From a virus: a stretch of 45,880 bases of DNA. The stretch lies in IMG/VR virus record IMGVR_UViG_3300045988_094522, one strand, 5' to 3'. Under the pieces are notes generated by a model. That model did not search any database and was not told where the DNA came from. It was given only the letters and a program-made list of their open reading frames with translations. The position numbers and the translations under genes were made by a program. This document shows, piece by piece, positions 1,518-45,880 of the stretch; positions within the stretch are counted from its first letter, which is position 1; each line of letters starts with the position of its first letter.

Positions 1518-1871
1518 TCACCCGGCAACTACCTCCCCTTTGGGTGCGGTTGTTTTTTCGTTCATGCAAACCTGAATGATATGGAAACGTCCCTGGGTGC
1601 TGGCTGAACGGTAGGCTTCCAGTAAGAGGCGTTCTTCCTCAGAAAATGTACAAGTCTGCGGTTTTCTAAGTTCACTTAGACCTAAAAGAAAATCAGTGGT
1701 TACGTCAAAGTATTTTGCCAAACGGCAAAGAACGTCTGCCTTGGGTTGAGAACCGCTTTTCCATCCTGATACGCTGGGGGATTTTACACCAGCAATATCA
1801 AGCATTTCCTGAGTTTGGGGCTTCATCCCATGTTCTGAACATAGCATTTCATAGCGTTCATAGAAAGTCAT
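1518..1871 (-). CDS. XRE/CI-like helix-turn-helix repressor
   Basis: 117 aa. The HTH segment QEMLDIAGVKSPSVSGWKSGSQPKADVLCRLAKYFDVTTDFLLG is typical of the XRE family. GGAGG lies 7 nt upstream. The gene is co-oriented with int, directly upstream of it, and divergent from the early operon. Confidence 0.8.
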   Translation of the reverse strand: MTFYERYEMLCSEHGMKPQTQEMLDIAGVKSPSVSGWKSGSQPKADVLCRLAKYFDVTTDFLLGLSELRKPQTCTFSEEERLLLEAYRSASTQGRFHIIQVCMNEKTTAPKGEVVAG

Positions 1872-1915: not shown

Positions 1916-1944
1916 TTGACAATCTAAGTAAACCTTGGTAATAT
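1916..1944 (+). promoter_or_regulatory. Early rightward sigma70-type promoter (PR-like)
   Basis: TTGACA (1916-1921), 17-nt spacer, TAATAT (1939-1944), upstream of the cro-like gene. Confidence 0.65.
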
Positions 1945-1955: not shown

Positions 1956-2122
1956 CAAGAGTTGTTTACAAAAAGGCAAAAGAATAACGCCCCTCTGGGA
2001 TATATTTTTTGCCCGGAGAGTTCTCAATGGTTTATGAGTGTGGTAGCTTCATTATAACCTTTGGGGAGTCCTCTGTCAACTATTGTTTACAAGAATACTC
2101 AAAGGAAGGAGGTACATGAGAC

Positions 2123-2347
2123 GTGGAGGAACGTGAGAATATTCGTGAACGATTGAGGAAGCACAGTCTTTCTTACGTTTGGCTTATCAGCCAGTTACGC
2201 ATGAGGGGCATTGTCACGGACAAGACGGAAATGAGTTCTGTCATTTCTGGGGTGAGGAACGGGGCAAAAGCCGACTCAATCATCCAGACTGCCAACGATA
2301 TTCTGGACAGTTACGAACAGGGTTCTGTCCTCGTTGGTGAGAAGTAA
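2123..2347 (+). CDS. Cro-like small DNA-binding protein, first gene of the early operon
   Basis: 74 aa with a GTG start 10 nt after AGGAGG. HTH-like LSYVWLISQLRMRGIVTDKTEMSSVISGVRNG. Sits opposite the repressor. Confidence 0.55.
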   Translation: MEERENIRERLRKHSLSYVWLISQLRMRGIVTDKTEMSSVISGVRNGAKADSIIQTANDILDSYEQGSVLVGEK

Positions 2348-2514
2348 TGTTTCCGAAAATGGAAGAAAGTGCTTTGGGTTCCCTGCTTGCGAAAAGGGTT
2401 AAAGCCTACTTCCAGGACAAGGAACACCAGAAAGAATTTGAAGAATGGTACTTGAAGAAGTACGGCAAGAGATTTGAAGGAGGATATTACCATGAAGGTA
2501 AAAAGAATGATTAA
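2347..2514 (+). CDS. Hypothetical small protein (55 aa)
   Basis: The ATG overlaps the cro-like stop (TAATG). The ORF MFPKMEESALGSLLAKRVKAYFQDKEHQKEFEEWYLKKYGKRFEGGYYHEGKKND is below the track's size cutoff. Its 3' end overlaps the next gene's start. Confidence 0.4.
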   Translation: MFPKMEESALGSLLAKRVKAYFQDKEHQKEFEEWYLKKYGKRFEGGYYHEGKKND

Positions 2515-3061
2515 GTCTGACGTTGATACTTTCCGGGTTGGAGATATTATCAAGTTCAAACTGACAGACGGCGAAAAGGTACAGGCAATGGCGGTACAGC
2601 AGGAAAATGACGGTATGCTGTTCTGTCTGGTGGACTGCTTGGCTGACGAGTATTCCATGAACGATACGAACACCAATGAGGGCGGCTATGAGGGCAGTGA
2701 CCTCAGAAAGAAGCTGAACACTGAGATTATTGCCCGCTTCCCTGCCGACATTAAGGCTATGATGGTTCCTTTCGGAAATGGAGATTATCTCCGTCTGCCA
2801 ACTGAAAAAGAGATTTTCGGTGAGAACTACTATGGCGAGTACGAGAGTCCGTATGTGCAGCAGTGGAAGCCTATGAAGCAGAGACGGAACCGCATTGCAT
2901 TTCAGGGTAAGAATGGTGGCTGGGAATGGTACTGGCTCCAGAATAAGTGTAGAGACTCCGCTGCTCACTTTGCCAGTGTCGACGACACCGGCGGTGCGGG
3001 CTACGGCGGCGCTTCTTACTCTTATGGCGTTCGTCCCGCTTTCAAAATCAGGGTTCTTTAA
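2492..3061 (+). CDS. Remote DGR target protein 2: stand-alone ligand-binding-type domain (DUF6273/C-type-lectin-like) with C-terminal VR2
   Basis: ATG 2492 lies 8 nt after GGAGG. 189 aa with no signal peptide. Motifs DLRKKLN, LPTEKEIFG, WYWLQN and C-terminal GVRPAF. The C-terminus is paralogous to the tail-fibre-like gene 39968-40852 and matches the TR. Confidence 0.8.
   Translation: MKVKRMIKSDVDTFRVGDIIKFKLTDGEKVQAMAVQQENDGMLFCLVDCLADEYSMNDTNTNEGGYEGSDLRKKLNTEIIARFPADIKAMMVPFGNGDYLRLPTEKEIFGENYYGEYESPYVQQWKPMKQRRNRIAFQGKNGGWEWYWLQNKCRDSAAHFASVDDTGGAGYGGASYSYGVRPAFKIRVL
2954..3043 (+). repeat. DGR variable region VR2
   Basis: Gap-free 90-bp alignment to TR 41443-41532. 18 mismatches fall at TR adenines. 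One T-to-C mismatch lies at the third base of the 5' edge. Confidence 0.85.
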
Positions 3062-3062
3062 T

Positions 3063-3085
3063 CTACACCCCCTTGTGGGGTGTAG
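3063..3085 (+). promoter_or_regulatory. GC hairpin downstream of VR2 (candidate DGR target-recognition cruciform, possibly also a terminator)
   Basis: ctacacccc / cttgt / ggggtgtag: 9-bp stem and 5-nt loop, preceded by ttaatcta. Same architecture and loop as 40861-40883. Confidence 0.65.
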
Positions 3086-4890: not shown

Positions 4891-6755
4891 TGGAAAATGA
4901 CATTTTTATCTTTGACTGTGAGGTGTTCGCTCACGATTGGCTGTTCGTTTTCAAAGAGATAGCCACTGGGGAATACACAGTTATCCATAATGACAATGAC
5001 GCTGTAGTTGCTTTCATGGAGCGCAACCCGTTCCTGGGAGGATTTAACAACAAGCACTATGACAATTTCATTTTAAAAGGGGTGATGTGCGGGCTTACTC
5101 CCGAACAGATTAAGGAAATCAATGACCTTATCATTGTGGAGGAAGTCAACGGATGGGATATACCCGTTCTCAGAGAGTACAGAGTATACTTTGACAGCTT
5201 TGACCTTATGGACGATTGCCAGGTTGGGTTGTCTCTTAAAGCGATTGAAGCCCACCTGGGAATACCGATTGAGGAAACTGAGGTTGACTTCAATATCACT
5301 CATAGGCTCTCAGAGAAAGAATTGCAGGAAACCATTTACTACTGCAAATATGACGTGGACGCTACTGAGAAGCTGTATCACCTGCGGCAAGCGTATCTGA
5401 AAAACAAAGTCACTCTGGGTAAAGCGAGAAACCTGACAGATAGACAGGCAATGTATATGACCAATGCAAAACTGACTTCTGTTTATCTGAAAGCGCAAAA
5501 GCCTGAAAAGCCCTGGAATGACGAAAGGAACTATCAATACCCGGAAAAGCTGTTACGGCAGTATATCCCTCAAGAGGTGTTTGACTTCTTTGACCGCATG
5601 AAAGATGACTGCATACCCAATGATGAACTGTTCAGTAGCAAGCTGGAAATTATGGTAGGTGTTTGCCCCTGCACTATCGCTTATGGTGGTATTCACGGCG
5701 CAATTCCTACCTATGTGGAAGAAGCCACTGAAACACGCACAATTCGCAACAAAGACGTGGCAAGCTACTATCCGCACTTGATGACCCTTATGGGTTATTG
5801 CAGCCGTAATATGCCGTCTCCGAAGATGTTTGAGGACACACTGGAAGAAAGAGTTGCCGCTAAAAAGGCAGGCGATAAAGCCACTGCAAACGCTTTGAAG
5901 TTGGTTCTTAACACAACATACGGAGCCATGCTGAACGGTAAGGATGGAACAGCGTTTAATGACCTGTATGACCCCCTGATGGGACGTTCCGTGTGCATAT
6001 CTGGGCAGCTTTTCCTCTTGGAACTTTCCGAACACCTGATTGCTGAGTGTCCTACTTTGAAAATCATTCAGCTTAACACAGATGGTATCATGGTGAGTTT
6101 TGACCATGAGGATGAAGCAAAATATCAGGAAATCACCCAGGAATGGCAGGACAGAACAGGTTTTGAACTGGAAGAAGATTTTATTCGCAAGATTGTTCAG
6201 AAGGACGTAAACAACTATGTGGAAGTCCCGGCTGACGGCGGGGAGCCGAAGGTCAAAGGTGGACAGCTTGTGCGGGGGATTGCTCCTGCGGGAGCCTTTA
6301 ATATCAACAATAATGCTGTGGTAGTCGCAAGGGCGATAAAGCAGTATTTCATTGACGGTACTCCCCCGGAGGAAACCATTGCGGCAAGTGAGAACATTCT
6401 GGATTTTCAGCTTATCGCAAAGGCGGGAGGTAAGTATTCTCAGTGCTATCACCTGGTAGGCGGGGAAAAAGTGATTGTTCAAAAGGTGAACCGTGTTTAT
6501 GCAGTATCAGACAAAAGCAAAGGGACAGTCTATAAAACCCACGCTGTTACAGGTAGAGACGCTAAAGTGGCTGGACTTCCCACGCATTGTGCCATTGACA
6601 ATAACAACAATCTCTCCATAGAGGTAGTTGACCGAAAGTGGTATGTCAAATTGGCAAAGAAGTATATCAATGATTTTTTGGGCATTAAGCCGCCCAGAAA
6701 AAATACCAGACGGATTAACTCACTCAAAAAGAAATCTTTAGCATTATTCGATTAA
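4887..6755 (+). CDS. DNA polymerase, family-B-like, with N-terminal 3'-5' exonuclease
   Basis: Exonuclease motifs FDCEV, NNKHYDNFIL and YCKYDVDAT. Polymerase motifs DVASYYPHLM (DxxSLYPS-like), KLVLNTTYGAM (KxxxNSxYG-like) and LNTDGIMV (DTD-like). Confidence 0.75.
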   Translation: MMENDIFIFDCEVFAHDWLFVFKEIATGEYTVIHNDNDAVVAFMERNPFLGGFNNKHYDNFILKGVMCGLTPEQIKEINDLIIVEEVNGWDIPVLREYRVYFDSFDLMDDCQVGLSLKAIEAHLGIPIEETEVDFNITHRLSEKELQETIYYCKYDVDATEKLYHLRQAYLKNKVTLGKARNLTDRQAMYMTNAKLTSVYLKAQKPEKPWNDERNYQYPEKLLRQYIPQEVFDFFDRMKDDCIPNDELFSSKLEIMVGVCPCTIAYGGIHGAIPTYVEEATETRTIRNKDVASYYPHLMTLMGYCSRNMPSPKMFEDTLEERVAAKKAGDKATANALKLVLNTTYGAMLNGKDGTAFNDLYDPLMGRSVCISGQLFLLELSEHLIAECPTLKIIQLNTDGIMVSFDHEDEAKYQEITQEWQDRTGFELEEDFIRKIVQKDVNNYVEVPADGGEPKVKGGQLVRGIAPAGAFNINNNAVVVARAIKQYFIDGTPPEETIAASENILDFQLIAKAGGKYSQCYHLVGGEKVIVQKVNRVYAVSDKSKGTVYKTHAVTGRDAKVAGLPTHCAIDNNNNLSIEVVDRKWYVKLAKKYINDFLGIKPPRKNTRRINSLKKKSLALFD

Positions 6756-7282: not shown

Positions 7283-7468
7283 ATGAAAGTATTTCTTTTC
7301 TTACTTTTACTCATTGCCCTTGAAGCCCTCAGTTTCGGACTGGCAGCACTCATTGTGTGGGTATTGAGCCTGTGTTTTGGCTTTGTATTCTCATGGAAAC
7401 TGGCTTTAGGGTTATGGATTTTGTTCCTTGTCGCTCAGAGTATTTTTAAGCCCAGAAACAACGGTTAA
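7283..7468 (+). CDS. Small hydrophobic membrane protein
   Basis: ATG follows AAGGAGGA. 61 aa, MKVFLFLLLLIALEALSFGLAALIVWVLSLCFGFVFSWKLALGLWILFLVAQ, about 2 TM helices. Confidence 0.5.
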   Translation: MKVFLFLLLLIALEALSFGLAALIVWVLSLCFGFVFSWKLALGLWILFLVAQSIFKPRNNG

Positions 7469-7481
7469 GGAGGAATTTGAA

Positions 7482-8234
7482 ATGGCAAATATCTATGAAG
7501 GAATGAATGTACGGCAGAAGTTGGCAAAGGCAAGGCTGTACTTTCTCAATCAGAAAATCAAGAAGTCTGGTAAGAATATGCACCTTGAGTTCAAGTACTT
7601 TGAATTGGAGGATATTGTACCCCCGGCAATCCGCATTTTCGCCCGTGTTGGTCTCACCACCAACATTGAGTTTACGGACGATAAGGCGGTAATGAATGTG
7701 TTCAACACAGATGATGTGAATGAACCCCCGCTGTCCTTCACGGTTCCCTATCGTGAGGTTAAGCCGATTATCAGCAATCAGGGTAAAGAGGTCACAAACC
7801 CCATGCAGGCGTTGGGTTCTTCTGTTACATATCTGCGGCGTTACCTCTGGATGACCGTTCTTGATATTACGGAGCCTGATGACATTGACGCAACTCTGGG
7901 AGCAGAGGATGAAGGGACAGAGGAAGGAGAAATTCCCGCCCCAAACCCTGAGACTGCAAAGAAAGAAAAGAAGCAGAAGCCCCCGGCTACCGCTACGGAG
8001 CGTAAGGCGGCAAAGGAAAATCTGACCGATACTGAGGGCAACGCTGACGCTTTGCAGATTGCGGCTCTTAAGAAGGTTTGCAAGGAACTCTTGGAAAAGG
8101 ACGAGACTCAGGAAGATTTTGTTCAGCAGATTGCCATGAAAACTCAGGGCTTTACCGTTGTGACCCGTTCGGCTTGCGAACAGCTTATCAAGAACCTTGG
8201 TGAAATGATTGAGTCTTACGGTACGGAGGAATAA
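7482..8234 (+). CDS. erf: ERF-family single-strand annealing protein
   Basis: ATG follows AAGGAGGA. Motifs KSGKNMHLEFKYFELEDIVPP and QALGSSVTYLRRYLWMTVLDI match the ERF pattern. Acidic/lysine-rich C-terminus. Confidence 0.7.
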   Translation: MANIYEGMNVRQKLAKARLYFLNQKIKKSGKNMHLEFKYFELEDIVPPAIRIFARVGLTTNIEFTDDKAVMNVFNTDDVNEPPLSFTVPYREVKPIISNQGKEVTNPMQALGSSVTYLRRYLWMTVLDITEPDDIDATLGAEDEGTEEGEIPAPNPETAKKEKKQKPPATATERKAAKENLTDTEGNADALQIAALKKVCKELLEKDETQEDFVQQIAMKTQGFTVVTRSACEQLIKNLGEMIESYGTEE

Positions 8235-8236
8235 GG

Positions 8237-8593
8237 ATGGGTGACAATGTAAATCACCCTGCCCATTACGAAACAGGTAGATTTGAGTGTATTGACGTTA
8301 TGCTGGAAACCCAGGGTACGGAAGCAGTAAAAAGTTTTTGTATCTGCAATGCACTCAAATATATCTACCGTCACAAACGAAAGAATGGGTTTGAGGATAT
8401 AAGAAAAGCTATCTGGTATCTGAATAAAGCTGTTGAATTGGAGGATAAAGACCATGAGAAAACTGAGACGAAGTGTAGCAAGACACAATATGTTGCGGGC
8501 GGGATTTACCCGGCTGAACAAAAAGGGCGGGGATGGAAGAAGCACTTTTTCAAAGCTGTGGAGAGAGTACGTTTAAGGAGGGATAAGCCATGA
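8237..8593 (+). CDS. DUF3310-family phage protein
   Basis: NHPAHYETGRFECIDVM...ICNALKYIYRHKRKNGFEDIRKAIWYLNKA matches the family signature. The C-terminal ~45 aa are low-information and overlap a nested ORF. Confidence 0.65.
   Translation: MGDNVNHPAHYETGRFECIDVMLETQGTEAVKSFCICNALKYIYRHKRKNGFEDIRKAIWYLNKAVELEDKDHEKTETKCSKTQYVAGGIYPAEQKGRGWKKHFFKAVERVRLRRDKP
8454..8576 (+). CDS. Possible nested small basic protein (40 aa)
   Basis: GGAGG lies 8 nt upstream of ATG 8454. MRKLRRSVARHNMLRAGFTRLNKKGGDGRSTFSKLWREYV. It stops just before the RBS of the next gene. Below the track's size cutoff. Confidence 0.35.
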   Translation: MRKLRRSVARHNMLRAGFTRLNKKGGDGRSTFSKLWREYV

Positions 8594-9642
8594 AGTGGAA
8601 TGACGATAAGACAATTACGATTGTCCCACCGAAAAAACCGAAGAAAATCACGGGTACACGGTTTGCGGCGATTATGGGGCTGAACCAGTGGACTACCCCC
8701 TTCAATGCCTGGTGTGCAATCACCAGAACTTATGAGGAACCTTTTGAGGACACCATTTACACTGTGGCTGGTAAGACAATCGAACCGAAGCAGGCTGACT
8801 TTATGAAGAAGTCCTATTTTATGAGTAACCTCATTTCCCCTACAGATGTGTACGGGAAGGATTACTTCAAAAAGACCTGGGGTGACTTCTTCCATGATAC
8901 GCCTATCTTTGGTGGAATGTGGGACTATTTGCTGGTAGATAAGGACGGAAAGCCTACTACTGTACTGGAAATGAAAACCACGAAGCGCAGTGAGGATTGG
9001 CTGGATGATGTGCCTGAGTATTACGCTTTGCAGGCGGCTCTCTACGCTTACCTGTTGGGAGTGGATGACGTTATCATGGTGTGTTCATTCCTTGAGGAAA
9101 AGGATTATGAACACCCAGAAGATTATCAGTGCAGCACAAAGAACACGATTGTTCGTCCCTTCAAGCTGTCTGAGCGTTATCCCACCCTGAAAAAGACCAT
9201 TGAGCAGGTGAAGAAATGGTGGAAAACCCATGTGGAGGGCGGCGTGTCCCCTAAGTATGATGAAAAGGCTGACGCTGATATTCTGAAAGTGCTGCGAGAC
9301 AATAACCTTTCTCCTGACACGGATTTGGACGCTCTGGTAAAAGAAGCAGAAAGCCTTATGAGCCATATCGAAACGGTATCTGCCACAATCGCAGATGACG
9401 AGAAGCGGCTAAAAAAGCTGAAAGAACTGATTAAGGCGGCTGCGGTCAAACAGTTTAAACCGGGTGACAAGACCGTGACGATTGAGGGTGGCTCTTACAA
9501 CTGGGTAACTTCTGTATCTATTAAAAAGAAGCAAGAGTTCAACGTAGGGGCTATGGAAAAAGACGGGGTTTACAGCAAGTATGTAAGCGAGACAGAAATC
9601 CCTGAGTATAGGTTTACGGCAAAGAAACGGGAGGATAAGTAA
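8590..9642 (+). CDS. YqaJ/lambda-Exo-type PD-(D/E)xK recombination exonuclease
   Basis: ITGTRFAAIMG, AGKTIEP, DYLLVDKDGKPTTVLEMKTTK and YYALQAALYAYLLG. Partnered with Erf. Confidence 0.75.
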   Translation: MKWNDDKTITIVPPKKPKKITGTRFAAIMGLNQWTTPFNAWCAITRTYEEPFEDTIYTVAGKTIEPKQADFMKKSYFMSNLISPTDVYGKDYFKKTWGDFFHDTPIFGGMWDYLLVDKDGKPTTVLEMKTTKRSEDWLDDVPEYYALQAALYAYLLGVDDVIMVCSFLEEKDYEHPEDYQCSTKNTIVRPFKLSERYPTLKKTIEQVKKWWKTHVEGGVSPKYDEKADADILKVLRDNNLSPDTDLDALVKEAESLMSHIETVSATIADDEKRLKKLKELIKAAAVKQFKPGDKTVTIEGGSYNWVTSVSIKKKQEFNVGAMEKDGVYSKYVSETEIPEYRFTAKKREDK

Positions 9643-20358: not shown

Positions 20359-21093
20359 TTATAACCATCTTAAACGGGGCTTTTTCTGCCGTCTCCAATA
20401 GTCTAACATTTCTTTTACTTTATCGGGGCTGTACATGGGTATATTATACAGTTGCAAGCCTGCGGGGGTCATATAATATCCTTTGCCATATCTGGGCAGC
20501 AGTTCGCAACCTTTAACGCCTAAAATGTTGCGGCTGTCCTGGGCGCAACGGGTACGCAAGGCAACCCGGCTATCAAAGTTTACTTTTATAGGAGTAGGGA
20601 TGACAGAGGAAAGCGGGCATTGCGTGGCGGCTATAATATGGACGTTTGCCGCCCTGCCTACTTGTGCAAGCCGTTGTAAAACGGGCTGCACCTGGCGGCG
20701 AGCGGTGGTCATTAAATCGGCTAATTCATCAATGATAATATAGACTGCCCCGCCGTCATAGTTTTTTATATGGCGGGCTTGCATGGCTTTATAGCGGCGT
20801 TCTGTTATTTCCATAGCATAATTTAACGCTTGCACCATTTCCCCCGGTTCACTGGAATATTTGAGCGTATGCGGTAACGGTTTATAGTCTATCAATTCAA
20901 CCCGTTTCGGGTCTATCAAGATAAATTGCACTTGTGCGGGGCTTTTAAATAAAGCTGTGTACATTATGCCATTGATAACAACGCTTTTACCGCTGCCCGT
21001 TGCGCCTGCTACTAATAAATGGGGTTGTTGTAACATATCGTTGTAAAGGTCATATACTGCACCCGCTGGCGTTGTCCAGGTCTTTTTTAACAT
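20359..21093 (-). CDS. FtsK/SpoIIIE-family ATPase, motor domain only
   Basis: The second ATG (21093) lies 7 nt after GGAGGT. Walker A LLVAGATGSGKSV, Walker B VYIIIDELADL, IIAATQCP, and DSRVALRTRCAQDSRNILG. No TM or gamma domain. Confidence 0.8.
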   Translation of the reverse strand: MLKKTWTTPAGAVYDLYNDMLQQPHLLVAGATGSGKSVVINGIMYTALFKSPAQVQFILIDPKRVELIDYKPLPHTLKYSSEPGEMVQALNYAMEITERRYKAMQARHIKNYDGGAVYIIIDELADLMTTARRQVQPVLQRLAQVGRAANVHIIAATQCPLSSVIPTPIKVNFDSRVALRTRCAQDSRNILGVKGCELLPRYGKGYYMTPAGLQLYNIPMYSPDKVKEMLDYWRRQKKPRLRWL

Positions 21094-21118
21094 TCTTTTA
21101 ACCTCCATTCTGAGAAAA

Positions 21119-21149
21119 GCCCCGGCGGGCTTGTGTGCCTGTCGGGGCT
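21119..21149 (-). terminator. Copy B of the 31-bp repeat / hairpin between ORF 21160-21498 and the FtsK-like gene
   Basis: Same 31-mer, followed on the minus strand by cttttctcag and then the RBS of the FtsK-like gene. Confidence 0.45.
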
Positions 21150-21159
21150 TGCCTGTGGG

Positions 21160-21498
21160 CTACTGTCCTATATAGCTATAATCGTATTCTTGAACGGTTC
21201 CCAGGGTTTCCGCTGTGGGCTTTTCACCTGTGAAACGGTCTACAGTTCTAACAGGGATATAAAACGCTGTACGGTTCCTTTTTCCTCTCAAATTGTAGTA
21301 TTCAAACGAGTTTACAGCTTCTTCAAAGCTGGCGGCGGCTTTTCCGCTTATGCTTATTTCTGGATGATATGGAAAGCCGGGGCGCAAGTTTGAAGGACAG
21401 AGGACAACCCGCAAGCCGTTGCTGTACGCTTTCCGGGCTGTGGTTTTAGTGATACGGACGAACAACCGCCCGCCGTCTGTGTAGGTGTATTCTTTCAT
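21160..21498 (-). CDS. Hypothetical protein (112 aa)
   Basis: GGAGG RBS. Member of the reverse-strand operon. Confidence 0.55.
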   Translation of the reverse strand: MKEYTYTDGGRLFVRITKTTARKAYSNGLRVVLCPSNLRPGFPYHPEISISGKAAASFEEAVNSFEYYNLRGKRNRTAFYIPVRTVDRFTGEKPTAETLGTVQEYDYSYIGQ

Positions 21499-21647
21499 GG
21501 TTTAACCTCCTGTATTTGTGCATTTTGTCAATGTGCTATTAACTGGCATTGCTGCGGGTTTGAAATCCCACTTTTTCCAGACCTCCCAGGGCTTGCACCC
21601 TGGGAACGCTTGCGCCCTAACTGGCTATTTATACCCGGCGCAACGGG

Positions 21648-22025
21648 TTAAAATGCTATGTTTGAAAGTCTGCGGGCTGCCTGTTTTAAAGCTCTTGCTT
21701 GTACGTCTAACCATTCTTCCCGGCTGTTAGGTCTGCGCTGCCCTTCATTGCTGCGCTTGTATTCAGACGGACAACAAAGACGCTTTGCAATGTCTCCATC
21801 ATAGATAAGAGAAGAACCACCGTAGCTGTAGGACTCCCAGGAGTCAGCACCATTTAACAACCATTCTTTAAACTCTTTGCAGTCTGCGGCTTCCCTTCCC
21901 TCATACTGCACCCGCTCTTGATACTCTTCTAATAATTCCAGGGCGTACAGTGTAACGCCTTTATTCCATGCGCTGCGGTCTTTTCTGGTTTCTAATCTGT
22001 TTTTAATTTCATTGTAGTTTGTCAT
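21648..22025 (-). CDS. Hypothetical protein (125 aa)
   Basis: The ORF has an RBS. SAWNKGVTLYALELLEEY motif of unknown function. Reverse-strand operon. Confidence 0.55.
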   Translation of the reverse strand: MTNYNEIKNRLETRKDRSAWNKGVTLYALELLEEYQERVQYEGREAADCKEFKEWLLNGADSWESYSYGGSSLIYDGDIAKRLCCPSEYKRSNEGQRRPNSREEWLDVQARALKQAARRLSNIAF

Positions 22026-22052
22026 ATCCTTTTACCTCTTTTCTTTTTTTGG

Positions 22053-22274
22053 TTATTCTTCTACAATAGGTTTACAAGGTGTAGTTGCTATATTGATTTC
22101 GTAAGTATCGGAATTTAAAGCCCTGAATGTATCAACCTTAAATTTTCCATAGGCTTCTAAGTGAAAAGGGTTGTTAATATCAAGTGTGGTGTTAAAATCT
22201 TCCCCATAACCTACAGTAATTTTAATTTGTAAATCTTCCTTGTAAATCATGCTTACAAGCTGTTTTACATTCAT
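22053..22274 (-). CDS. Hypothetical protein (73 aa), first gene of the reverse-strand operon
   Basis: AAAGGAG RBS. Preceded by a consensus-like promoter. Confidence 0.5.
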   Translation of the reverse strand: MNVKQLVSMIYKEDLQIKITVGYGEDFNTTLDINNPFHLEAYGKFKVDTFRALNSDTYEINIATTPCKPIVEE

Positions 22275-22891: not shown

Positions 22892-23497
22892 ATGGATGAA
22901 TTAAGTTTCAAATTTCAGGAAACTGCTGTAAGAACCCTGTTAATAGAACGTGAACCGTGGTTTGTAGGAAAAGACGTGGCAGAAGCATTACACCATAGCA
23001 ACCCTGAAAGGGCGGTTCGTAATTTTGTAGATGATGAAGATAAAGGAGTGACCGTTTTAGTCACCCCTGGTGGAACTCAACAAGTTACGATTATTAACGA
23101 ACCGGGAGTATATTCTTTAATCTTGCAAAGTAAGACAGAAACGGCTAAGAAGTTTAAACATTGGGTAACACATAATGTCTTGCCGTCTATTCGCAAGCAA
23201 GGTTATTATTCTGTTCTATCTGATGAAGAATTGATTGAAGCACTTACCCAAAAGCTGCAAGACAATCCAAAGTTCTTGAAATACACTGACGGACTTACCC
23301 CGGCACAAAAGAAGGACGCTAACAAATTAAGACGAGAAGCCGATTATCAGGAGTTACGCAAAAACTGGAAAGATATGGAGCCACGGGAAGTGACACAAAA
23401 ATTGAGTGATATTTTCTTTGATGACCCCAGACGGTTTGAACGGGAGAACAACAAATTCATCTACTGGTATAACCACAACAAAATTTCCAGATTTTAA
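22892..23497 (+). CDS. BRO-N domain protein (antirepressor-like)
   Basis: FQETAVRTLLIEREPWFVGKDVAEALHHSNPERAVRNFVDDEDKG...INEPGVYSLILQSKTETAKKFKHWVTHNVLPSIRKQG. Confidence 0.75.
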   Translation: MDELSFKFQETAVRTLLIEREPWFVGKDVAEALHHSNPERAVRNFVDDEDKGVTVLVTPGGTQQVTIINEPGVYSLILQSKTETAKKFKHWVTHNVLPSIRKQGYYSVLSDEELIEALTQKLQDNPKFLKYTDGLTPAQKKDANKLRREADYQELRKNWKDMEPREVTQKLSDIFFDDPRRFERENNKFIYWYNHNKISRF

Positions 23498-39369: not shown

Positions 39370-39963
39370 ATGGCATGGGAACTTTTACCCGTTGATTATA
39401 CGGACGCTGTTTGGAGTGGCTTGAAGCGGTACAATACCGTGAACAATGAGGACGGCACAGTTTCCTTCCAGGACGTAACGGTGTATTCAGGAAAGGAAAA
39501 ATCCTTCTTTGGCGCAAAGGACGCTAACAGGATGAACGAAGCCCTGAATACGCTTATGAGTATGGTGGAGAATGGAACTGACCTGTATACAGCTTTCCAG
39601 AATTACTTTGCAGTGCAGAAGGATTTGTTTGAGGAAGAAGCAGACAGCAAGGCAGAGGATTTTGACGATTACACCGATAATCTAAAAGCTGAATATCAGG
39701 CGAGTATGGCTCAGTTTGAAAGCCAACAGCAACAGACGTTCAATGCGTGGTTTCAGGCTATGCAGAACCAGTTATCTCAGGACGCTGCGGGGAACCTGCA
39801 AAATCAGTGTACGGAACTGGACGAAAGGCTCAGTCTTTTAGAGTACATGACTATGCAGAATGACTTCTCTGCTCCGATTGCTACGGATGACGAGACTATC
39901 ACTCTCATTGTGGATGACCTGGATTACGCTATTTTGGCAGATTGGAAACATAAGGAGGAATAA
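39370..39963 (+). CDS. Tail-fibre-like coiled-coil protein
   Basis: Central Gln/Glu-rich coiled coil. Lies in the fibre module. Confidence 0.45.
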   Translation: MAWELLPVDYTDAVWSGLKRYNTVNNEDGTVSFQDVTVYSGKEKSFFGAKDANRMNEALNTLMSMVENGTDLYTAFQNYFAVQKDLFEEEADSKAEDFDDYTDNLKAEYQASMAQFESQQQQTFNAWFQAMQNQLSQDAAGNLQNQCTELDERLSLLEYMTMQNDFSAPIATDDETITLIVDDLDYAILADWKHKEE

Positions 39964-39967
39964 AGAA

Positions 39968-40852
39968 ATGTCGGTTATTAGCGTTCAGACAAAGAAATTT
40001 GGAGACCTTGGGACTATCCTTACCGCAGGTGATGACAGCCTGCTTCTTATCCATGATGGTACGGGAGTCAAGACTATCTCCACGGCGAACTTCAAAAAGG
40101 ATTTGAAGGAATACATGGAAGGGGTCAATACCATTCTGGAGCAGTTGACCTATGACAATGCTGGGGCGCACAACTCTATCTACAGAGGGAAGAACCTTGG
40201 CACTACCGTAACGGAGGAACAGTGGGAAGCTATTTCCAGTGGTACTTTCACTGACCTGTACATTGGTGATTACTGGGTTATCGGCGGCGTGAACTGGCGT
40301 ATTGCGGCGTTTGACTATTACCTGAACTGCGGCGATACCAGTTTTACGAAACACCACGCAGTCATTGTGCCTGATACCTGCCTGTACAATGCTCAGATGA
40401 ACACTACCAACGTGACCACTGGCGCATACAAAGGCTCTGCTATGTACACGGCGAACTTGACGCGGGCGAAGTCCACTATCAACAGTGCGTTTGGAAGTTC
40501 GCACGTTCTGTCTCACAGAATTTATCTTTCCAATGCAACGTCCAACGGTAGGGCTTCTGCTGGTGAGTGGACAGACAGTACCGTTGACCTGATGTGTGAA
40601 CACATGGTTTACGGAAGTGGTATTTTCAGCCCGGTATCGGACGGTAGCAATGTTCCGAACAATTACCGTGTTGAGAAAGGGCAGTTGCCGCTCTTTGCTC
40701 TGGAACCGTCCAGAATTTGTAACAGGGCTGCATGGTGGCTGAGAGATGTGATTACCGCTGCTATCTTTGCCGTTGTCGGCGGCCGCGGCGATGCGTACTA
40801 CTTCGACGCTTCTGACTCTAGTGGCGTTCGTCCCGCTTTCTGTATCGGTTAA
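39968..40852 (+). CDS. DGR target protein 1: tail-fibre/receptor-binding-like protein with C-terminal VR1
   Basis: ATG follows AAGGAGGA. 294 aa. The C-terminus AAWWLRDVITAAIFAVVGGRGDAYYFDASDSSGVRPAFCIG is paralogous to ORF 2492-3061. Confidence 0.85.
   Translation: MSVISVQTKKFGDLGTILTAGDDSLLLIHDGTGVKTISTANFKKDLKEYMEGVNTILEQLTYDNAGAHNSIYRGKNLGTTVTEEQWEAISSGTFTDLYIGDYWVIGGVNWRIAAFDYYLNCGDTSFTKHHAVIVPDTCLYNAQMNTTNVTTGAYKGSAMYTANLTRAKSTINSAFGSSHVLSHRIYLSNATSNGRASAGEWTDSTVDLMCEHMVYGSGIFSPVSDGSNVPNNYRVEKGQLPLFALEPSRICNRAAWWLRDVITAAIFAVVGGRGDAYYFDASDSSGVRPAFCIG
40751..40840 (+). repeat. DGR variable region VR1
   Basis: 90-bp gap-free alignment to the TR. All 18 mismatches fall at TR adenines. Ends 3 codons before the stop. 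Confidence 0.9.
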
Positions 40853-40860
40853 TCTAAAAT

Positions 40861-40883
40861 CCCCTCCCCCTTGTGGGGAGGGG
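40861..40883 (+). promoter_or_regulatory. GC hairpin downstream of VR1 (candidate DGR cruciform/terminator)
   Basis: cccctcccc / cttgt / ggggagggg, preceded by ttaatcta. Confidence 0.65.
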
Positions 40884-40901: not shown

Positions 40902-41444
40902 ATGTCAGTATTAAAAAGCAAACGGAAACCCTCTCAGTTTGAGGTATTCCACCATTTGAATAAATTGAGAAAGGAAATTACTGATTTGCTTCTCCGGGAC
41001 TTTGGCTATAATGCGATAAAATCTGAGAAGCGTCTGGAAAGACGGTTCGGTAGCAGAAGTTACGAAGAACTTACTGACATTGAGAAACAGCAGTATGACC
41101 GCCAGAAGAAAAAGCAGGACGCATTTGACGAGTGGTTTATCGAGAGTGAAAGGAACGCCATTATTGACTGTCTGCGGTCTATCGGTGAACACGTCTATAC
41201 AGCAAACAGTATCTATCCTACATACCCGGAAGAACTGGTTGAAAGGCGGCTTCATCAGGATTTGGCAATCGGTCAATGTTACAGGCTGGTTCAGGAATTA
41301 CAGTACGCAATCGAGACGCTACCAGTTGATGTGAATACCTACTTGCGGTTTGGTGCTGATATTCAGAAAGAAATTGACCTTATCAAAGGTTGGAGGAAGT
41401 CTGATAACAAGTTCAAAACGGCTCTTTCACAGGGCAATCTCTAA
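40902..41444 (+). CDS. avd: Avd-like accessory variability determinant (long form, 180 aa)
   Basis: Lies between the target and the TR. Helical and basic (KSKRKPSQFEVFHHLNKLRKEI..., C-terminal IDLIKGWRKSDNKFK). Its stop codon overlaps the first TR bases. Confidence 0.55.
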   Translation: MSVLKSKRKPSQFEVFHHLNKLRKEITDLLLRDFGYNAIKSEKRLERRFGSRSYEELTDIEKQQYDRQKKKQDAFDEWFIESERNAIIDCLRSIGEHVYTANSIYPTYPEELVERRLHQDLAIGQCYRLVQELQYAIETLPVDVNTYLRFGADIQKEIDLIKGWRKSDNKFKTALSQGNL

Positions 41445-41532
41445 TACCGCTGCTAACTTTGCCAATGTCAACAACAACGGCAATGCGAACTACAACAACG
41501 CTTCTAACTCTAATGGCGTTCGTCCCGATTTC
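41443..41532 (+). repeat. DGR template repeat (TR)
   Basis: aat acc gct gct aac ttt gcc aat gtc aac aac aac ggc aat gcg aac tac aac aac gct tct aac tct aat ggc gtt cgt ccc gat ttc. 27 adenines and 12 AAY codons. Confidence 0.9.
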
Positions 41533-41597
41533 GATACTGTGATTAAATAGGCATTTGACCGTTTCACAGTGAGAGAAAGGAGAGATTGTCCTTCCGT

Positions 41598-42797
41598 ATG
41601 GTAAATACTAAACACGACACAGGCGGTTACGACCGCTCCTGTTATCAGCGTGAGATATTTGACGGCAATGCGTTGTATGACGCTTACATAAAAGCAAAGA
41701 AAGGGAGTGACTGGAAACCGCAGGTACAGAAGTTTGAAATGACCTACCTTTTATCGCTGGCAAAAGTCCAGCAGGATTTAAAGGATGAAACCTACGAATT
41801 TTTACCCGGAACACGCTTTATTATCAATGAACGTGGCAAGACCAGATGTATTACTGGTGAACAAATACAGGATAGAGTGGTGAAACACGTTTTATGTGAT
41901 GAAGTAATAACCCCAGCAATACGCAAACACCTCATTTACGATAACGGCGCAAGCCTTGAGGGTAAGGGAATTGCATTTACCAGGCGCAGGCTGGAAACCC
42001 ACCTGCACAGGTTTTACAGCAAACATGGTTCCAATGATGGATATATCCTTTTGATAGATTTTTCAAAATACTATGACAATATCCAGCATGACGTTCTGAT
42101 GAAACTGTTTTCAAAGTATATCACGGACGGAAGGGCTTTACGTTTGCTACAGCGGATTATTGACCGGGAGAAGATAGATGTTTCCTACATGACGGATGAA
42201 GAATACGCCCACTGTATGGAAATGGTATTCAATTCCCTTGAGTATGAGAAAATTGACAGGCGGCTGCTGACGGGCGAAAAGTTCATGCGAAAGCATTTGA
42301 ACATTGGAGACCAGGTAGCGCAGGACGCAGGGATAGCCTATCGAATACCGATAGACAACTTTGTGAAGATTGTCAAAGGGGTAAAATTCTATGGTGCGTA
42401 TATGGATGACAGTTACGCAATCCATGAGAGTAAAGAGTTCTTACAAGACCTGCTCTCAGAAATTATTGAGATTGCAAAAGGGATTGGTATTACCGTGAAT
42501 GTGAGAAAGACCAGAATATGCAAACTGTCTGAAATGTGGAGGTTTCTTCAAGTGCAATACTCTCTGACGGAGACTGGCAGGGTGATACATAAAATCAACC
42601 CGAAAAGACTTACGGTTATGAGACGGAAATTGAAGAAGCTGGCGGGGAGACTTCCCGAAAAGGAATTTTACAATCTGTACCATTCGTGGATGGAAAATCA
42701 CTACCGAATTATGAGCAGGCAACAGAGGGCAAATATGAATGACCTCTACAATAAGTTAAAGGAGGAACATTACCATGTACAAACTGATTTTGGCTGA
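41598..42797 (+). CDS. DGR reverse transcriptase
   Basis: RGKTRCITG, LLIDFSKYYDNIQH (motif A), LNIGDQVAQ (compare DGR [ILV]GxxxSQ), YGAYMDDSYAI (YxDD) and ITVNVRKTRI. The start may be TTG 41586. Confidence 0.85.
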   Translation: MVNTKHDTGGYDRSCYQREIFDGNALYDAYIKAKKGSDWKPQVQKFEMTYLLSLAKVQQDLKDETYEFLPGTRFIINERGKTRCITGEQIQDRVVKHVLCDEVITPAIRKHLIYDNGASLEGKGIAFTRRRLETHLHRFYSKHGSNDGYILLIDFSKYYDNIQHDVLMKLFSKYITDGRALRLLQRIIDREKIDVSYMTDEEYAHCMEMVFNSLEYEKIDRRLLTGEKFMRKHLNIGDQVAQDAGIAYRIPIDNFVKIVKGVKFYGAYMDDSYAIHESKEFLQDLLSEIIEIAKGIGITVNVRKTRICKLSEMWRFLQVQYSLTETGRVIHKINPKRLTVMRRKLKKLAGRLPEKEFYNLYHSWMENHYRIMSRQQRANMNDLYNKLKEEHYHVQTDFG

Positions 42798-44148: not shown

Positions 44149-45714
44149 ATGAGCAACAGTTCTTTGGTAGATTGCACTGTTAAAAGCCCGAACCATAGCG
44201 GTGCAAGAACCCATTCCATTGACCGTATCACGCCCCACTGTGTAGTGGGGCAGCTTACGGCAGAAAGTATTGGTGGGTGCTTCACAAGCACTTCCCGGCA
44301 GGCAAGCTGTAATTATGGTATCGGCAAAGACGGCAGAGTGGTTCTGTGTGTGGATGAAGGGAATAGAAGCTGGTGTTCTTCCAGCAATGCGAATGACCAG
44401 AGGGCGGTCACGATTGAATGTGCGTCCGACCTCAATCACCCGTATGCCATGAACAATGCCGTTTACCAGAAACTTATTGCGCTCTGTGTGGATATTTGCA
44501 AGCGCAACGGCAAGACGAAGTTGATTTGGCTGGGTGACAAGAATAAGACCCTTGCTTATGAGCCGAAAGCAGGTGAAATGATGCTTACCGTCCACCGCTG
44601 GTTTGCGAATAAGGCTTGCCCCGGAGATTGGCTTTACAACTGTCTGGGAGACCTTGCGGCGGCTGTTACGGAAAAGCTGGGCGGCACGTCCTCCACTGAC
44701 ACTTCTGGCTTGCAGGCTACTTCCCTGAAAGATATGGAGAACGCCGACATTATCAAGAGGATTGGCAGTTTGTTCACGGCTGACCAGAAGAACAGCGGCG
44801 TTCTGGCTTCTGTGTCTCTGGCACAGTTTATCCTTGAGTCTGGGTATGGTAAGTCCGAACTGGCTCAGAACGCCAACAACTGCTTTGGTATGAAATGCAG
44901 TCTGTCCGGGAATACCTGGGGCGGCTCTACTTGGGATGGCACAAGCAAGTATACGAAGAAAACGCAGGAATATGAGAACGGGCAGTATGTAACTGTCACG
45001 GCTGACTTCCGCAAGTATTCCAGCGTGGAACAGTCCATTGCTGACCATTCCGCATATCTGCTTGGTGCTATGAACGGCAGCAAGAAACGCTATGACGGTC
45101 TGAAAGGCTGTACTGACTACAAAAAGGCAGTCCAGATTATCAAGGACGGCGGCTACGCTACCTCCCCGGATTATGTGGAGAAAATCTGCAATATCATTGA
45201 GACCTGGAACCTGACTGCCTATGACGCTGCGGAAAGCACAGGCGGTGCAAGCGGTACGTTCCCAGATGTTCCTTTTACCGTAAAGGTCATCATTAACGAT
45301 TTGAACTACCGCTCTGAACCGTCCATGAGCGGCAAGGTGAAGGGGCAGACTGGCAAGGGTGTGTTTACCATTGTTGAGGTCAAAGACGGCTGGGGACGGC
45401 TTAAATCTGGCGCAGGCTGGATTTATCTGCTCAACCCGTCTTACTGCACTGTCAACGACTCTGCTTCTTCTGGCAGTACGGCAAGTGCTGTTCCGTATAT
45501 GGTGCGTGTCAAGGTTTCTGATTTGCGTATTCGTAAGGGCGCAGGCACGAACTATGCGGCTACTGGCTCTTATACGGGTAAGGGTGTATTCACCATTGTT
45601 GAGGAAGCGCAGGGGCAGATTGACAGCGCAGGTAACAAGGGTCTCTGGGGCAAGCTGAAAAGCGGCGCAGGCTGGATTTGCCTTGCTTATGACAGCTATA
45701 CCGAAAAGGTCTAA
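44149..45714 (+). CDS. Endolysin: N-acetylmuramoyl-L-alanine amidase + glucosaminidase + 2 SH3b repeats
   Basis: Amidase_2-like N-terminus (ITPHCVVGQ...NDQRAVTIECASD...HRWFANKACPG). LAQFILESGYGKSELAQNANNCFGMK. Two copies of GKGVFTIVE...G(R/K)LKSGAGWI. Confidence 0.85.
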   Translation: MSNSSLVDCTVKSPNHSGARTHSIDRITPHCVVGQLTAESIGGCFTSTSRQASCNYGIGKDGRVVLCVDEGNRSWCSSSNANDQRAVTIECASDLNHPYAMNNAVYQKLIALCVDICKRNGKTKLIWLGDKNKTLAYEPKAGEMMLTVHRWFANKACPGDWLYNCLGDLAAAVTEKLGGTSSTDTSGLQATSLKDMENADIIKRIGSLFTADQKNSGVLASVSLAQFILESGYGKSELAQNANNCFGMKCSLSGNTWGGSTWDGTSKYTKKTQEYENGQYVTVTADFRKYSSVEQSIADHSAYLLGAMNGSKKRYDGLKGCTDYKKAVQIIKDGGYATSPDYVEKICNIIETWNLTAYDAAESTGGASGTFPDVPFTVKVIINDLNYRSEPSMSGKVKGQTGKGVFTIVEVKDGWGRLKSGAGWIYLLNPSYCTVNDSASSGSTASAVPYMVRVKVSDLRIRKGAGTNYAATGSYTGKGVFTIVEEAQGQIDSAGNKGLWGKLKSGAGWICLAYDSYTEKV

Positions 45715-45880
45715 AATCGCTGATAACGCTTAATCTGCGGGCATACAAAGGTATGAATGACAAGGTTTCCGTGAATTGTCGGATTTGCACTCATACCTGG
45801 TGCATTGCCCGTGAAATCCGACAACGTACCGTCTTTTGTAAGGCGGTACGTTTTTGTCGGTAAAGAGGTAAGATTATAAG
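45711..45880 (-). CDS. int: 3' end of the serine recombinase gene (continuation of 1-1490; 45796-45880 duplicates 1-85)
   Basis: The frame is kept across the junction: ...DFTGNAPG-MSANPTIHGNLVIHTFVCPQIKRYQRF-stop. The stop codon (45713-45711) overlaps the endolysin stop (45712-45714). Total length 524 aa. Confidence 0.8.
   Translation of the reverse strand, partial: YNLTSLPTKTYRLTKDGTLSDFTGNAPGMSANPTIHGNLVIHTFVCPQIKRYQRF
45796..45880. repeat. 85-bp exact terminal direct repeat, copy 2
   Basis: Identical to 1-85. Confidence 0.95.
45823..45855 (+). terminator. Hairpin + T-run downstream of the endolysin gene (also present as 28-60)
   Basis: aacgtaccg-tcttttgtaagg-cggtacgtt overlapping ttttt. 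Lies inside the antisense int coding tail. Confidence 0.5.

Follow-up and report, generated by a model that had tools for sequence, protein, structure and literature searches.

The gene that we call T2 (2492..3061, + strand) is very probably a functional second target, acted on in trans, of the diversity-generating retroelement (DGR) of this gut phage, and its variable repeat, VR2, is being diversified now in an adenine-specific manner. The window, by which we mean the whole 45,880-nt stretch of DNA that was analysed, has an exact 85-nt repeat at its two ends and thus represents a complete circle of 45,795 bp. On this circle the template repeat (TR) is separated from VR2 by 7,306 nt, the stop codon of the reverse transcriptase (RT) gene from the T2 start by 5,490 nt, and the tail-side variable repeat VR1 from VR2 by 37.8 kb, so that VR2 is indeed remote from the cassette, as a preliminary description of this DNA had held. 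When positions 1-25000 of the window were compared with GenBank phages by megablast no match was found, and the relatives discussed below were identified by protein-level searches only.

The DGR cassette has the order Avd-TR-RT and is placed 3′ of the tail genes and 5′ of the holin and endolysin genes. The Avd-like accessory gene (40902..41444, + strand) lies directly upstream of TR and has a weak match (E-value 1e-4) to phrog_3206, annotated as 'Avd protein of DGR'. TR (41443..41532, + strand) contains 27 adenines in 90 nt. The RT gene (41586..42797, + strand) is likely to start at the ATG at 41598, and its product carries a YMDD motif at residue 272 and matches Pfam RVT_1 with an E-value of 8e-12. 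The motif-4 region of this protein reads IGDQVAQ, as against the canonical form ending in SQ. Database searches with the RT also match Bordetella phages, and the best matches are annotated DGR reverse transcriptases, the nearest known being those of phages Fontainebleau (44 %) and Shimadzu (33 %). A DGR-type RT is therefore found adjoining a TR and an accessory gene, although the Avd match is weak. The ORF at 44149-45714 was considered as a possible integrase gene, but this was rejected; it encodes the endolysin and is preceded by the holin gene.

When the 90-nt TR core (41443-41532) was scanned against both strands of the window, two other copies, VR1 (40751..40840, + strand) and VR2, and none further, were found. 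The gapless alignment of VR2 (2954-3043) with TR reported in the preliminary description was reproduced in full; there are 19 mismatches, 18 of which are at TR adenines, the last being a T-to-C change (41445/2956). It had been suspected that this change lies outside the homology, and the suspicion appears to be well founded: the first four bases of VR2 (2954-2957, 'G.CT') are invariant in all close relatives while the remainder varies, and the true TR homology thus starts at 2958. Within the segment 2958..3043 (+ strand), compared with TR 41447-41532, all of the mismatches (16/16) are at adenines (hypergeometric P = 8e-12), and the diversified tract spans positions 2966-3025 approximately, corresponding to T2 residues 159-178. 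VR1 shows the same pattern, with 18/18 mismatches at TR adenines (P 1e-12). The two variable repeats share one codon phase; 21 positions distinguish them, 20 of which are TR adenines, in keeping with the earlier suggestion that they were diversified independently from one template. Read in this frame, TR has AAY codons at T2 residues 159, 162, 164-166, 168, 170, 172, 173, 176 and 178, and a TAC codon at residue 171; AAY template codons are the classical DGR design, because adenine changes within them cannot generate stop codons. Locus L003, a relative recovered from IMG/VR, carries an identical TR, and its VR1, TR and VR2 lie on a single contiguous sequence, spaced as in the window. A search for TR within 10 kb on either side of 78 homologous loci found it only in L003 and L015, with most TRs falling outside the flanks that were fetched.

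The two target genes encode proteins of different architecture. T1 (39968..40852, + strand) specifies a product of 294 aa from its likely ATG, and most likely starts at 39968, not at 39860. It comprises an N-terminal virion-protein-like module, with a weak match to the virion structural protein family phrog_27494 (E-value 7e-6), and a C-terminal DUF6273-like domain; the direct match to DUF6273 (E-value 4e-4, 20.7 bits) falls under the 23.5-bit threshold, and the relationship is established via hhalign. T2 is a stand-alone DUF6273 protein of 189 aa, starting at the ATG at 2492 with a GGAGG sequence 7-8 nt upstream. It matches Pfam DUF6273 (PF19789) with 39.6 bits (threshold 23.5) and phrog_21980 over its full length (E-value 4e-29). 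The T2 family profile aligns to T1 residues 95-293 only (hhalign probability 93.6 %, E-value 2e-7), and the N-terminal module of T1 is thus absent from T2, which consists of the domain alone. The domain shared by the two C-termini in the preliminary description is therefore real, although the motif DLRKKLN, which had been listed among its common features, is present in T2 and absent from T1. T2 has no hydrophobic segment, the maximum Kyte-Doolittle mean over 19 residues being 0.72, and this agrees with the earlier statement that it lacks a signal peptide and a transmembrane segment.

Searches of PDB sequences with the T2 profile and with T1 gave no meaningful match, Mtd included in the case of T2. 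AlphaFold2 models of T2 were built from 47 and then from 54 sequences, the latter set including Fontainebleau-type homologues with 40-47 % identity, and had mean pLDDT values of 60 and 66, the half that contains the VR scoring below 50. When the second model was used in Foldseek, the best PDB match was a weak one (E-value 0.1) to the DUF6273 domain of a Thomasclavelia IgA peptidase (9qa6), and the BFVD matches, with an E-value of 3e-4, were likewise DUF6273 proteins, no other kind of protein being recovered. DUF6273 is described in the literature as C-type-lectin-like; given the low pLDDT, the attribution of this fold to T2 follows that literature and is not confirmed by Foldseek. The family is a large one. 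A profile search of 1.84 billion representatives returned 2378 clusters at 50 % identity, 228 of them at E-values of 1e-30 or below, and the best 150 of the 2378 are mostly stand-alone proteins of 175-200 aa. The N-terminal extensions of longer homologues contain DUF6275, DUF6353 and tandem or giant DUF6273 repeats only, and provide no functional clue.

That VR2 is active is seen in closely related genomes. Three IMG/VR contigs carry nearly the same T2 gene, with 461/462, 460/462 and 443/462 identities to the window in the 462 nt before VR2, and yet VR2 itself is just 78/90, 74/90 and 73/90 identical. Between the window and L001, 830/831 bases are shared upstream of VR2 and there are 12 differences within it, all at TR adenines. 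In comparisons among the window, L001 and L002, VR2 differs at TR adenines only, as expected if these are not fixed ancestral substitutions, a check that the preliminary description had set; pairs involving L003 have two differences at non-adenine positions. At the protein level, 24 close T2 alleles include no two alike, with 6-13 different residues at each AAY position. Exact-sequence look-up gives a similar picture, in that the T2 protein of the window occurs on two public contigs, within a 90 % cluster of 1790 distinct sequences, whereas the exact sequences of its resolvase and cro-like neighbours are each present on at least 1000 public contigs. The remainder of the protein is under strong purifying selection, similar to that acting on neighbouring genes: relative to L015, dN/dS is 0.08 over T2 codons 1-154 and 0.12 over the resolvase gene, as against 0.94 in the VR, values that are approximate since synonymous sites are near saturation. 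We also note that some public assemblies (P0020, P0022, P0023, P0029 and P0031) contain frameshifts inside VR2.

In Bordetella phage BPP-1, a DGR target is reportedly marked by a non-mutated 3′ block, which tells VR from TR, and by a GC hairpin just downstream. Similar features are present at both targets here. Both variable repeats end in the same 18-nt non-diversified, IMH-like block, GGCGTTCGTCCCGCTTTC (3026..3043, + strand, in VR2), and TR has GAT where the VRs have GCT, placing an adenine at the position of the C. The corresponding T2 residue, 183, is alanine in 23/24 of the close alleles, and the same TR-GAT versus VR-GCT difference recurs in phage Fontainebleau, even though its RT is only 44 % identical. 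A hairpin at 3063..3085, located 19 nt past VR2, has a 9-bp GC-rich stem, a CTTGT loop and a predicted energy of −9.6 kcal/mol, and a second, 20 nt past VR1 at 40861..40883, has the stem CCCCTCCCC/GGGGAGGGG; the CTTGT loop is common to the two while the outer stems differ. Neither hairpin is followed by a T-run and they are thus not terminator-like. No GC hairpin was found downstream of TR.

The hairpin is also found 3′ of T2 homologues, both in four context groups and in cultured Lachnospiraceae. An (A/T)ATC sequence precedes it in most cases; one group has it within an extended reading frame, and one homologue set on large contigs lacks it. Among 15 distinct sequences, compensatory changes occur at 7/9 stem pairs, and 95.6 % of the family hairpin cells are paired, as against 35-56 % in a control in which the partner was slid, figures to be read with the knowledge that the sequences were chosen by a hairpin finder, which biases them towards pairing though not towards covariation at a fixed position. 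The GGCGTTCGTCCCGCTTTC block and the hairpin would thus be candidate DGR target marks in this phage, by analogy with BPP-1. Under the established DGR mechanism, the Avd-TR-RT cassette would transcribe TR and produce cDNA in which adenines are copied unfaithfully, and this cDNA would replace the VR of any gene carrying matching 3′ recognition elements. T1 and T2 both carry such putative elements, the block being followed by a GC-rich hairpin 19-20 nt downstream, and about 12 surface codons of T2, those that are AAY in TR, would be rewritten independently of T1.

T2 is located in a region with the appearance of an early operon. A repressor-like helix-turn-helix (HTH) gene (1518..1871, − strand), matching Pfam HTH_3 (E-value 7e-5) and a PHROG family of transcriptional regulators or repressors (E-value 4e-12), is transcribed divergently from the rightward genes. 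Two predicted promoters face each other in this region: a rightward sigma-70-like one (1916..1944, + strand; TTGACA-17-TAATAT with an extended TG, 10/12 consensus positions) and a leftward one (2051..2079, − strand; TTGACA-17-TATAAT, 12/12). The first rightward ORF (2123..2347, + strand) encodes 74 aa, and the preliminary placement of T2 just after cro stands in respect of its position and HTH-like sequence, although the ORF has no Pfam or PHROG match and is cro-like in that sense only. The second (2347..2514, + strand; 55 aa) overlaps the start of T2 by 23 nt, and is kept beside the 74-aa ORF in related genomes, although not always beside T2. T2 is the third rightward ORF and is followed by genes for a Holliday-junction resolvase, an SF2 helicase and a DNA polymerase, with Erf, a RecE-like exonuclease, a methyltransferase, NrdD and a primase encoded further downstream. 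Scanning revealed no terminator-like site between the rightward promoter and position 6282, and a consensus scan revealed no promoter-like or terminator-like site separating T2 from the replication genes. T2 runs in the same direction as the early regulatory and replication genes and is translationally linked to them. From these promoter and terminator scans and the gene order it is probably expressed early; its assignment to an early or DNA-metabolism block is upheld, while the more specific term 'immediate-early' used previously would depend on the predicted promoters.

This placement is conserved in several lineages. Thirteen of the 78 IMG/VR loci have the window's order of cro, orf55, T2, resolvase, helicase and polymerase; in seven, T2 is between the helicase and polymerase genes, and in two it is downstream of the polymerase gene. 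At L043, the one Toutatis-like locus that was read, T2 lies between methyltransferase/peptidase genes and a replication initiator gene, and a prophage of Moryella indoligenes DSM 19659 has the order serine integrase, T2, resolvase, helicase, polymerase. In the readable lineages the T2 homologue is never in the structural block, although its position shifts within the early/DNA-metabolism block. Loci with multiple paralogues on contigs of 70-270 kb are a separate case, as their neighbouring genes gave almost no family matches.

Several known systems resemble this arrangement to different degrees. The Mtd protein of BPP-1 reportedly has a C-terminal VR within a lectin-type domain, an AAY-rich TR and adenine-specific mutagenesis. 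T2 is unlike Mtd in having no N-terminal beta-prism/beta-sandwich domains serving trimerisation or tail attachment and in being encoded outside the tail module; it is a single-domain protein with no PDB sequence match and its gene is in the early block. Nor does it resemble the tentaclins, in which an N-terminal C-lec domain carrying the VR is followed by Ig-like domains (Baykov et al., 2023), as its VR is C-terminal, it is 189 aa long and it has no Ig-like or Fn3 match. There is a close correspondence with orf43 of Roseburia phage Shimadzu, a T2 homologue (34 % identity, tblastn E-value 4e-16). T2 has the characteristics of this type, namely a stand-alone homologue of approximately 180-215 aa with a C-terminal VR, encoded in an early/DNA-metabolism module remote from the RT. 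Orf43 itself is about 200 aa long with a C-terminal VR, is remote from its RT cassette and has no assigned function; it lies among genes for DNA methyltransferases, Erf, SSB and replication proteins, an early-type setting like that of T2, and is followed by a GC hairpin preceded by AATC, as in the T2 family. Its VR2 has been shown to diversify, both by analysis of reads from virions and in isolates from the mouse gut (Cornuault et al., bioRxiv 10.1101/575076, 2019). Shimadzu differs from the phage described here in its myovirus background and in having an integrase, and orf43 is approximately 5.5 kb into its operon, whereas only two ORFs separate T2 from a predicted early promoter.

Phage Fontainebleau, a prophage of Acutalibacter in the OMM12 mouse consortium, encodes a T2 homologue that is likewise 189 aa long (WAK78934, 46 % identity). 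Its TR is at about 35.1 kb, VR1 is in a tail-side gene, and VR2 is in the WAK78934 gene, where 15/15 mismatches are at adenines; this gene is situated between DNA polymerase I and helicase, after the polymerase, whereas T2 follows the cro-like region. The paper naming Fontainebleau does not describe its DGR. In the Faecalibacterium phages Toutatis, Lelie and CP11 a single TR serves two DUF6273 targets, referred to as 'large and small' in Lelie and CP11; CP11 relatives show adenine-specific variation at both VRs, and Lelie in culture shows no read-level variation at its VRs. In Toutatisvirus a second DUF6273 target is 17.5 kb from TR and is a core gene; in the sequence record this gene, gp24, is in the early region between methyltransferase genes and the replication initiator, and matches its TR with mismatches at adenines only. 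There is no significant pairwise similarity between T2 and the small targets of the Toutatis, Lelie and CP11 type outside the VR motif, and the first target in those phages is Hoc-like or a tentaclin, as distinct from the T1 type present here. A 2025 Nature paper (PMC12629997) described four human-gut prophage species in which a second VR is distant from the RT cassette and close to counter-defence genes, and linked this to an arms race, an idea that the preliminary description shares; these phages are mostly of Bacteroidota, and the likeness to T2 is in the remote second VR arrangement. A remote, small second target is thus an arrangement already published and is not new, and the view implied by the preliminary description, that known phage DGR targets are tail receptor-binding proteins, is overtaken by these examples. 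The early-region paralogues that it had proposed should be sought in related phages are present in Shimadzu, Fontainebleau, Toutatis and the Moryella prophage. What is added here is the early-module position across lineages, the conserved recognition hairpin and the availability of cultured models. The class of small remote targets has been under-reported because the large DGR survey of Roux et al. could not detect them, remote targets being, as those authors state, beyond its detection.

It could be asked whether VR2 is simply a relic, an old duplicate of the lectin domain that has fixed ancestral substitutions and is no longer serviced by the DGR. The absence of read-level variation in cultured Lelie and the homologue set without a downstream hairpin would fit such a relic, but 12-17 VR2 positions distinguish near-identical genomes, in every case TR adenines save for the two in comparisons with L003, and the 1790 distinct sequences in the 90 % cluster contrast with flanking proteins that are identical on at least 1000 contigs. 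Together with the 24 distinct alleles, the hairpin maintained by compensatory changes and the purifying selection on the scaffold, these observations make a relic extremely improbable, and we reject this explanation. The function of a diversified T2 is more finely balanced. The roles offered in the preliminary description, those of a host-factor binder, an anti-defence protein or a decoy, are conjectural. We tentatively favour the idea that it is a cytoplasmic, early-made hypervariable binder of a variable ligand, either intracellular or exposed at lysis, and that it is not a stoichiometric part of the virion; its early-module position, the missing anchor module and its coupling to early ORFs all argue against a stoichiometric virion component. 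It is nonetheless possible, though doubtful, that T2 is a virion-associated accessory protein for receptor binding or adhesion, a minimal Mtd-like lectin produced in the cytoplasm and then docked on the tail or head, that would add a second and independently variable specificity for host-surface or mucosal glycans. T2 shares both its domain family and its TR with tail-side T1, virion proteins require no signal peptide, and the single-domain DUF6273 targets of nd4/nd12 and Toutatis are viewed by published authors as receptor-binding proteins, Baykov et al. (2023) considering such targets to be possible receptor binders. Such a role is harder to reconcile with the lack of any T2 counterpart to the N-terminal virion module of T1, with the overlap of T2 and an early ORF and the lack of a promoter- or terminator-like site before the replication genes, and with the location of the gene among early/DNA-metabolism genes in the readable lineages, one large-contig set having neighbours that could not be read.

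A soluble lectin that acts extracellularly, either after lysis or via vesicles, seems unlikely. Such a released ligand binder might cover the receptors of nearby cells or debris, or attach to mucus or host glycans, and there is a partial precedent in a 2026 preprint, in which a DGR-diversified DUF6273 'Hoc-like' protein of Mushuvirus was found in the bacterial secretome and in vesicles without phage particles. T2 is small and soluble by hydropathy, as this would require, but it has no signal peptide, and its location in a predicted repressor-controlled rightward operon makes production in lysogens unlikely. Returning to the cytoplasmic binder that we favour, a more specific version is that the T2 family constitutes early, antibody-like binders that are continuously re-randomised against variable intracellular targets, such as proteins of host defence systems or of competing mobile elements. 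The early-module position, the lack of a virion anchor and of a secretion signal, the 2378 clusters, and the inability of the large DGR survey to detect remote targets are consistent with such a counter-defence role, although we regard it in this specific form as rather unlikely.

The usual explanation of phage DGRs is that they switch tropism by altering tail proteins. T2 is one of a recurring class of second targets, small proteins without an anchor whose genes accompany those for early replication, a class that appears to be widespread in phages of gut Clostridia to judge from the 2378 clusters, with the DGR cis elements confirmed only in the loci examined. If T2 acts inside the cell or as a released lectin, programmed hypermutation would have a further use to the phage during its life cycle; and if the counter-defence role is correct, DGRs would be a tool of counter-defence or inter-element conflict and not of host range alone. 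Homologous two-target systems are available in culture in Roseburia intestinalis L1-82 (Shimadzu), Acutalibacter muris (Fontainebleau) and Moryella indoligenes DSM 19659.

The window ends in an exact direct terminal repeat of 85 nt (positions 1–85 recur as 45796–45880), and the window is therefore a complete genome of 45,795 bp, either circular or terminally redundant. Its genes lie on the plus strand apart from a minus-strand island (20359–22274) between the replication and packaging blocks, which includes a gene for an FtsK/SpoIIIE-like ATPase (20359–21108, minus strand); after this island comes a gene for an anti-repressor (Ant), at 22892–23497. Two strong promoter-like sites are predicted, one on the plus strand at 1916–1944 (10/12, with TG) and the other on the minus strand at 2051–2079 (12/12). 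As predicted from sequence the pair has the layout of a convergent switch and not of back-to-back promoters, and transcripts from these face-to-face promoters would overlap by about 90 nt in the interval that separates the early operon from the repressor-like gene.

No integrase was found among the annotated ORFs of the window, and the unannotated ORFs are all too short to encode a serine integrase; the ORF at 44149–45714, considered as a candidate, is an endolysin gene. A related Moryella prophage carries a serine integrase gene (7420–9006 in locus L084) immediately upstream of its homologue of T2, the DUF6273 second DGR target (2492–3061). Although no integrase was found in the window, exact copies of the proteins encoded by its cro-like ORF (2123–2347, named by its position) and by the Holliday-junction resolvase gene that follows T2 are present on contigs of up to 475–674 kb, with Acutalibacteraceae and Subdoligranulum as the source names.

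For target 1, the tail-side DGR target, the longest ORF begins at 39860, within the tail gene that precedes it (39370–39963); translation more likely starts from the ATG at 39968 (MSVISVQTKK...), and the exact sequence of the resulting 294-aa product is present in a public collection. The reverse transcriptase (41586–42797) has the catalytic YMDD. DGR reverse transcriptases usually have SQ in motif 4, and here this region reads IGDQVAQ, with AQ in its place.

A DGR with two targets is also encoded by Acutalibacter phage Fontainebleau (ON453893; loci L093 and L080), a cultured prophage of the OMM12 mouse consortium, with VR1 at about 33.9 kb, the template repeat at about 35.1 kb and VR2 at about 9.8 kb of that record; the paper that named the phage makes no mention of it. 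The Fontainebleau-type family includes longer variants (P0128, P0130 and P0132), whose alignments cover just part of the query and which lack any Pfam match.

Five proteins from public assemblies (P0020, P0022, P0023, P0029 and P0031) represent the same gene as T2, with 95–99 % identity up to the variable repeat, and all have a frameshift inside VR2 (2958–3043) that is read through to give products of 175–214 aa. Such alleles reflect either indels generated by the DGR or chimeras that arose in the assembly of mixed VR populations. The 90 % cluster of T2 holds 1790 distinct sequences, whereas that of target 1 holds only five; one possible reason is that a wide variety of tail-side targets accompanies the T2/early module as it circulates, another that clustering was uneven.

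Among a set of loci on IMG/VR contigs of 70–270 kb (L004–L014, L020–L030 and L038), some (e.g. L004, L005, L007, L008, L013 and L038) have T2 paralogs in groups of two or three, spread over about 7 kb. Nearly all neighbouring genes in this set are of unknown function, with one weak GmrSD_N match (L005, 14130–14900), and the GC hairpin (9-bp stem) downstream of the VRs is absent from every one of these loci. They may belong to another type of element and be copies that do not depend on a DGR. Eight to twelve T2-like DUF6273 repeats occur in each of three giant proteins, P0246 (3973 aa), P0367 (3404 aa) and P0387 (2245 aa), which are probably bacterial surface proteins made of the T2-type domain; P0387 has an additional weak match to a Listeria-Bacteroides repeat.
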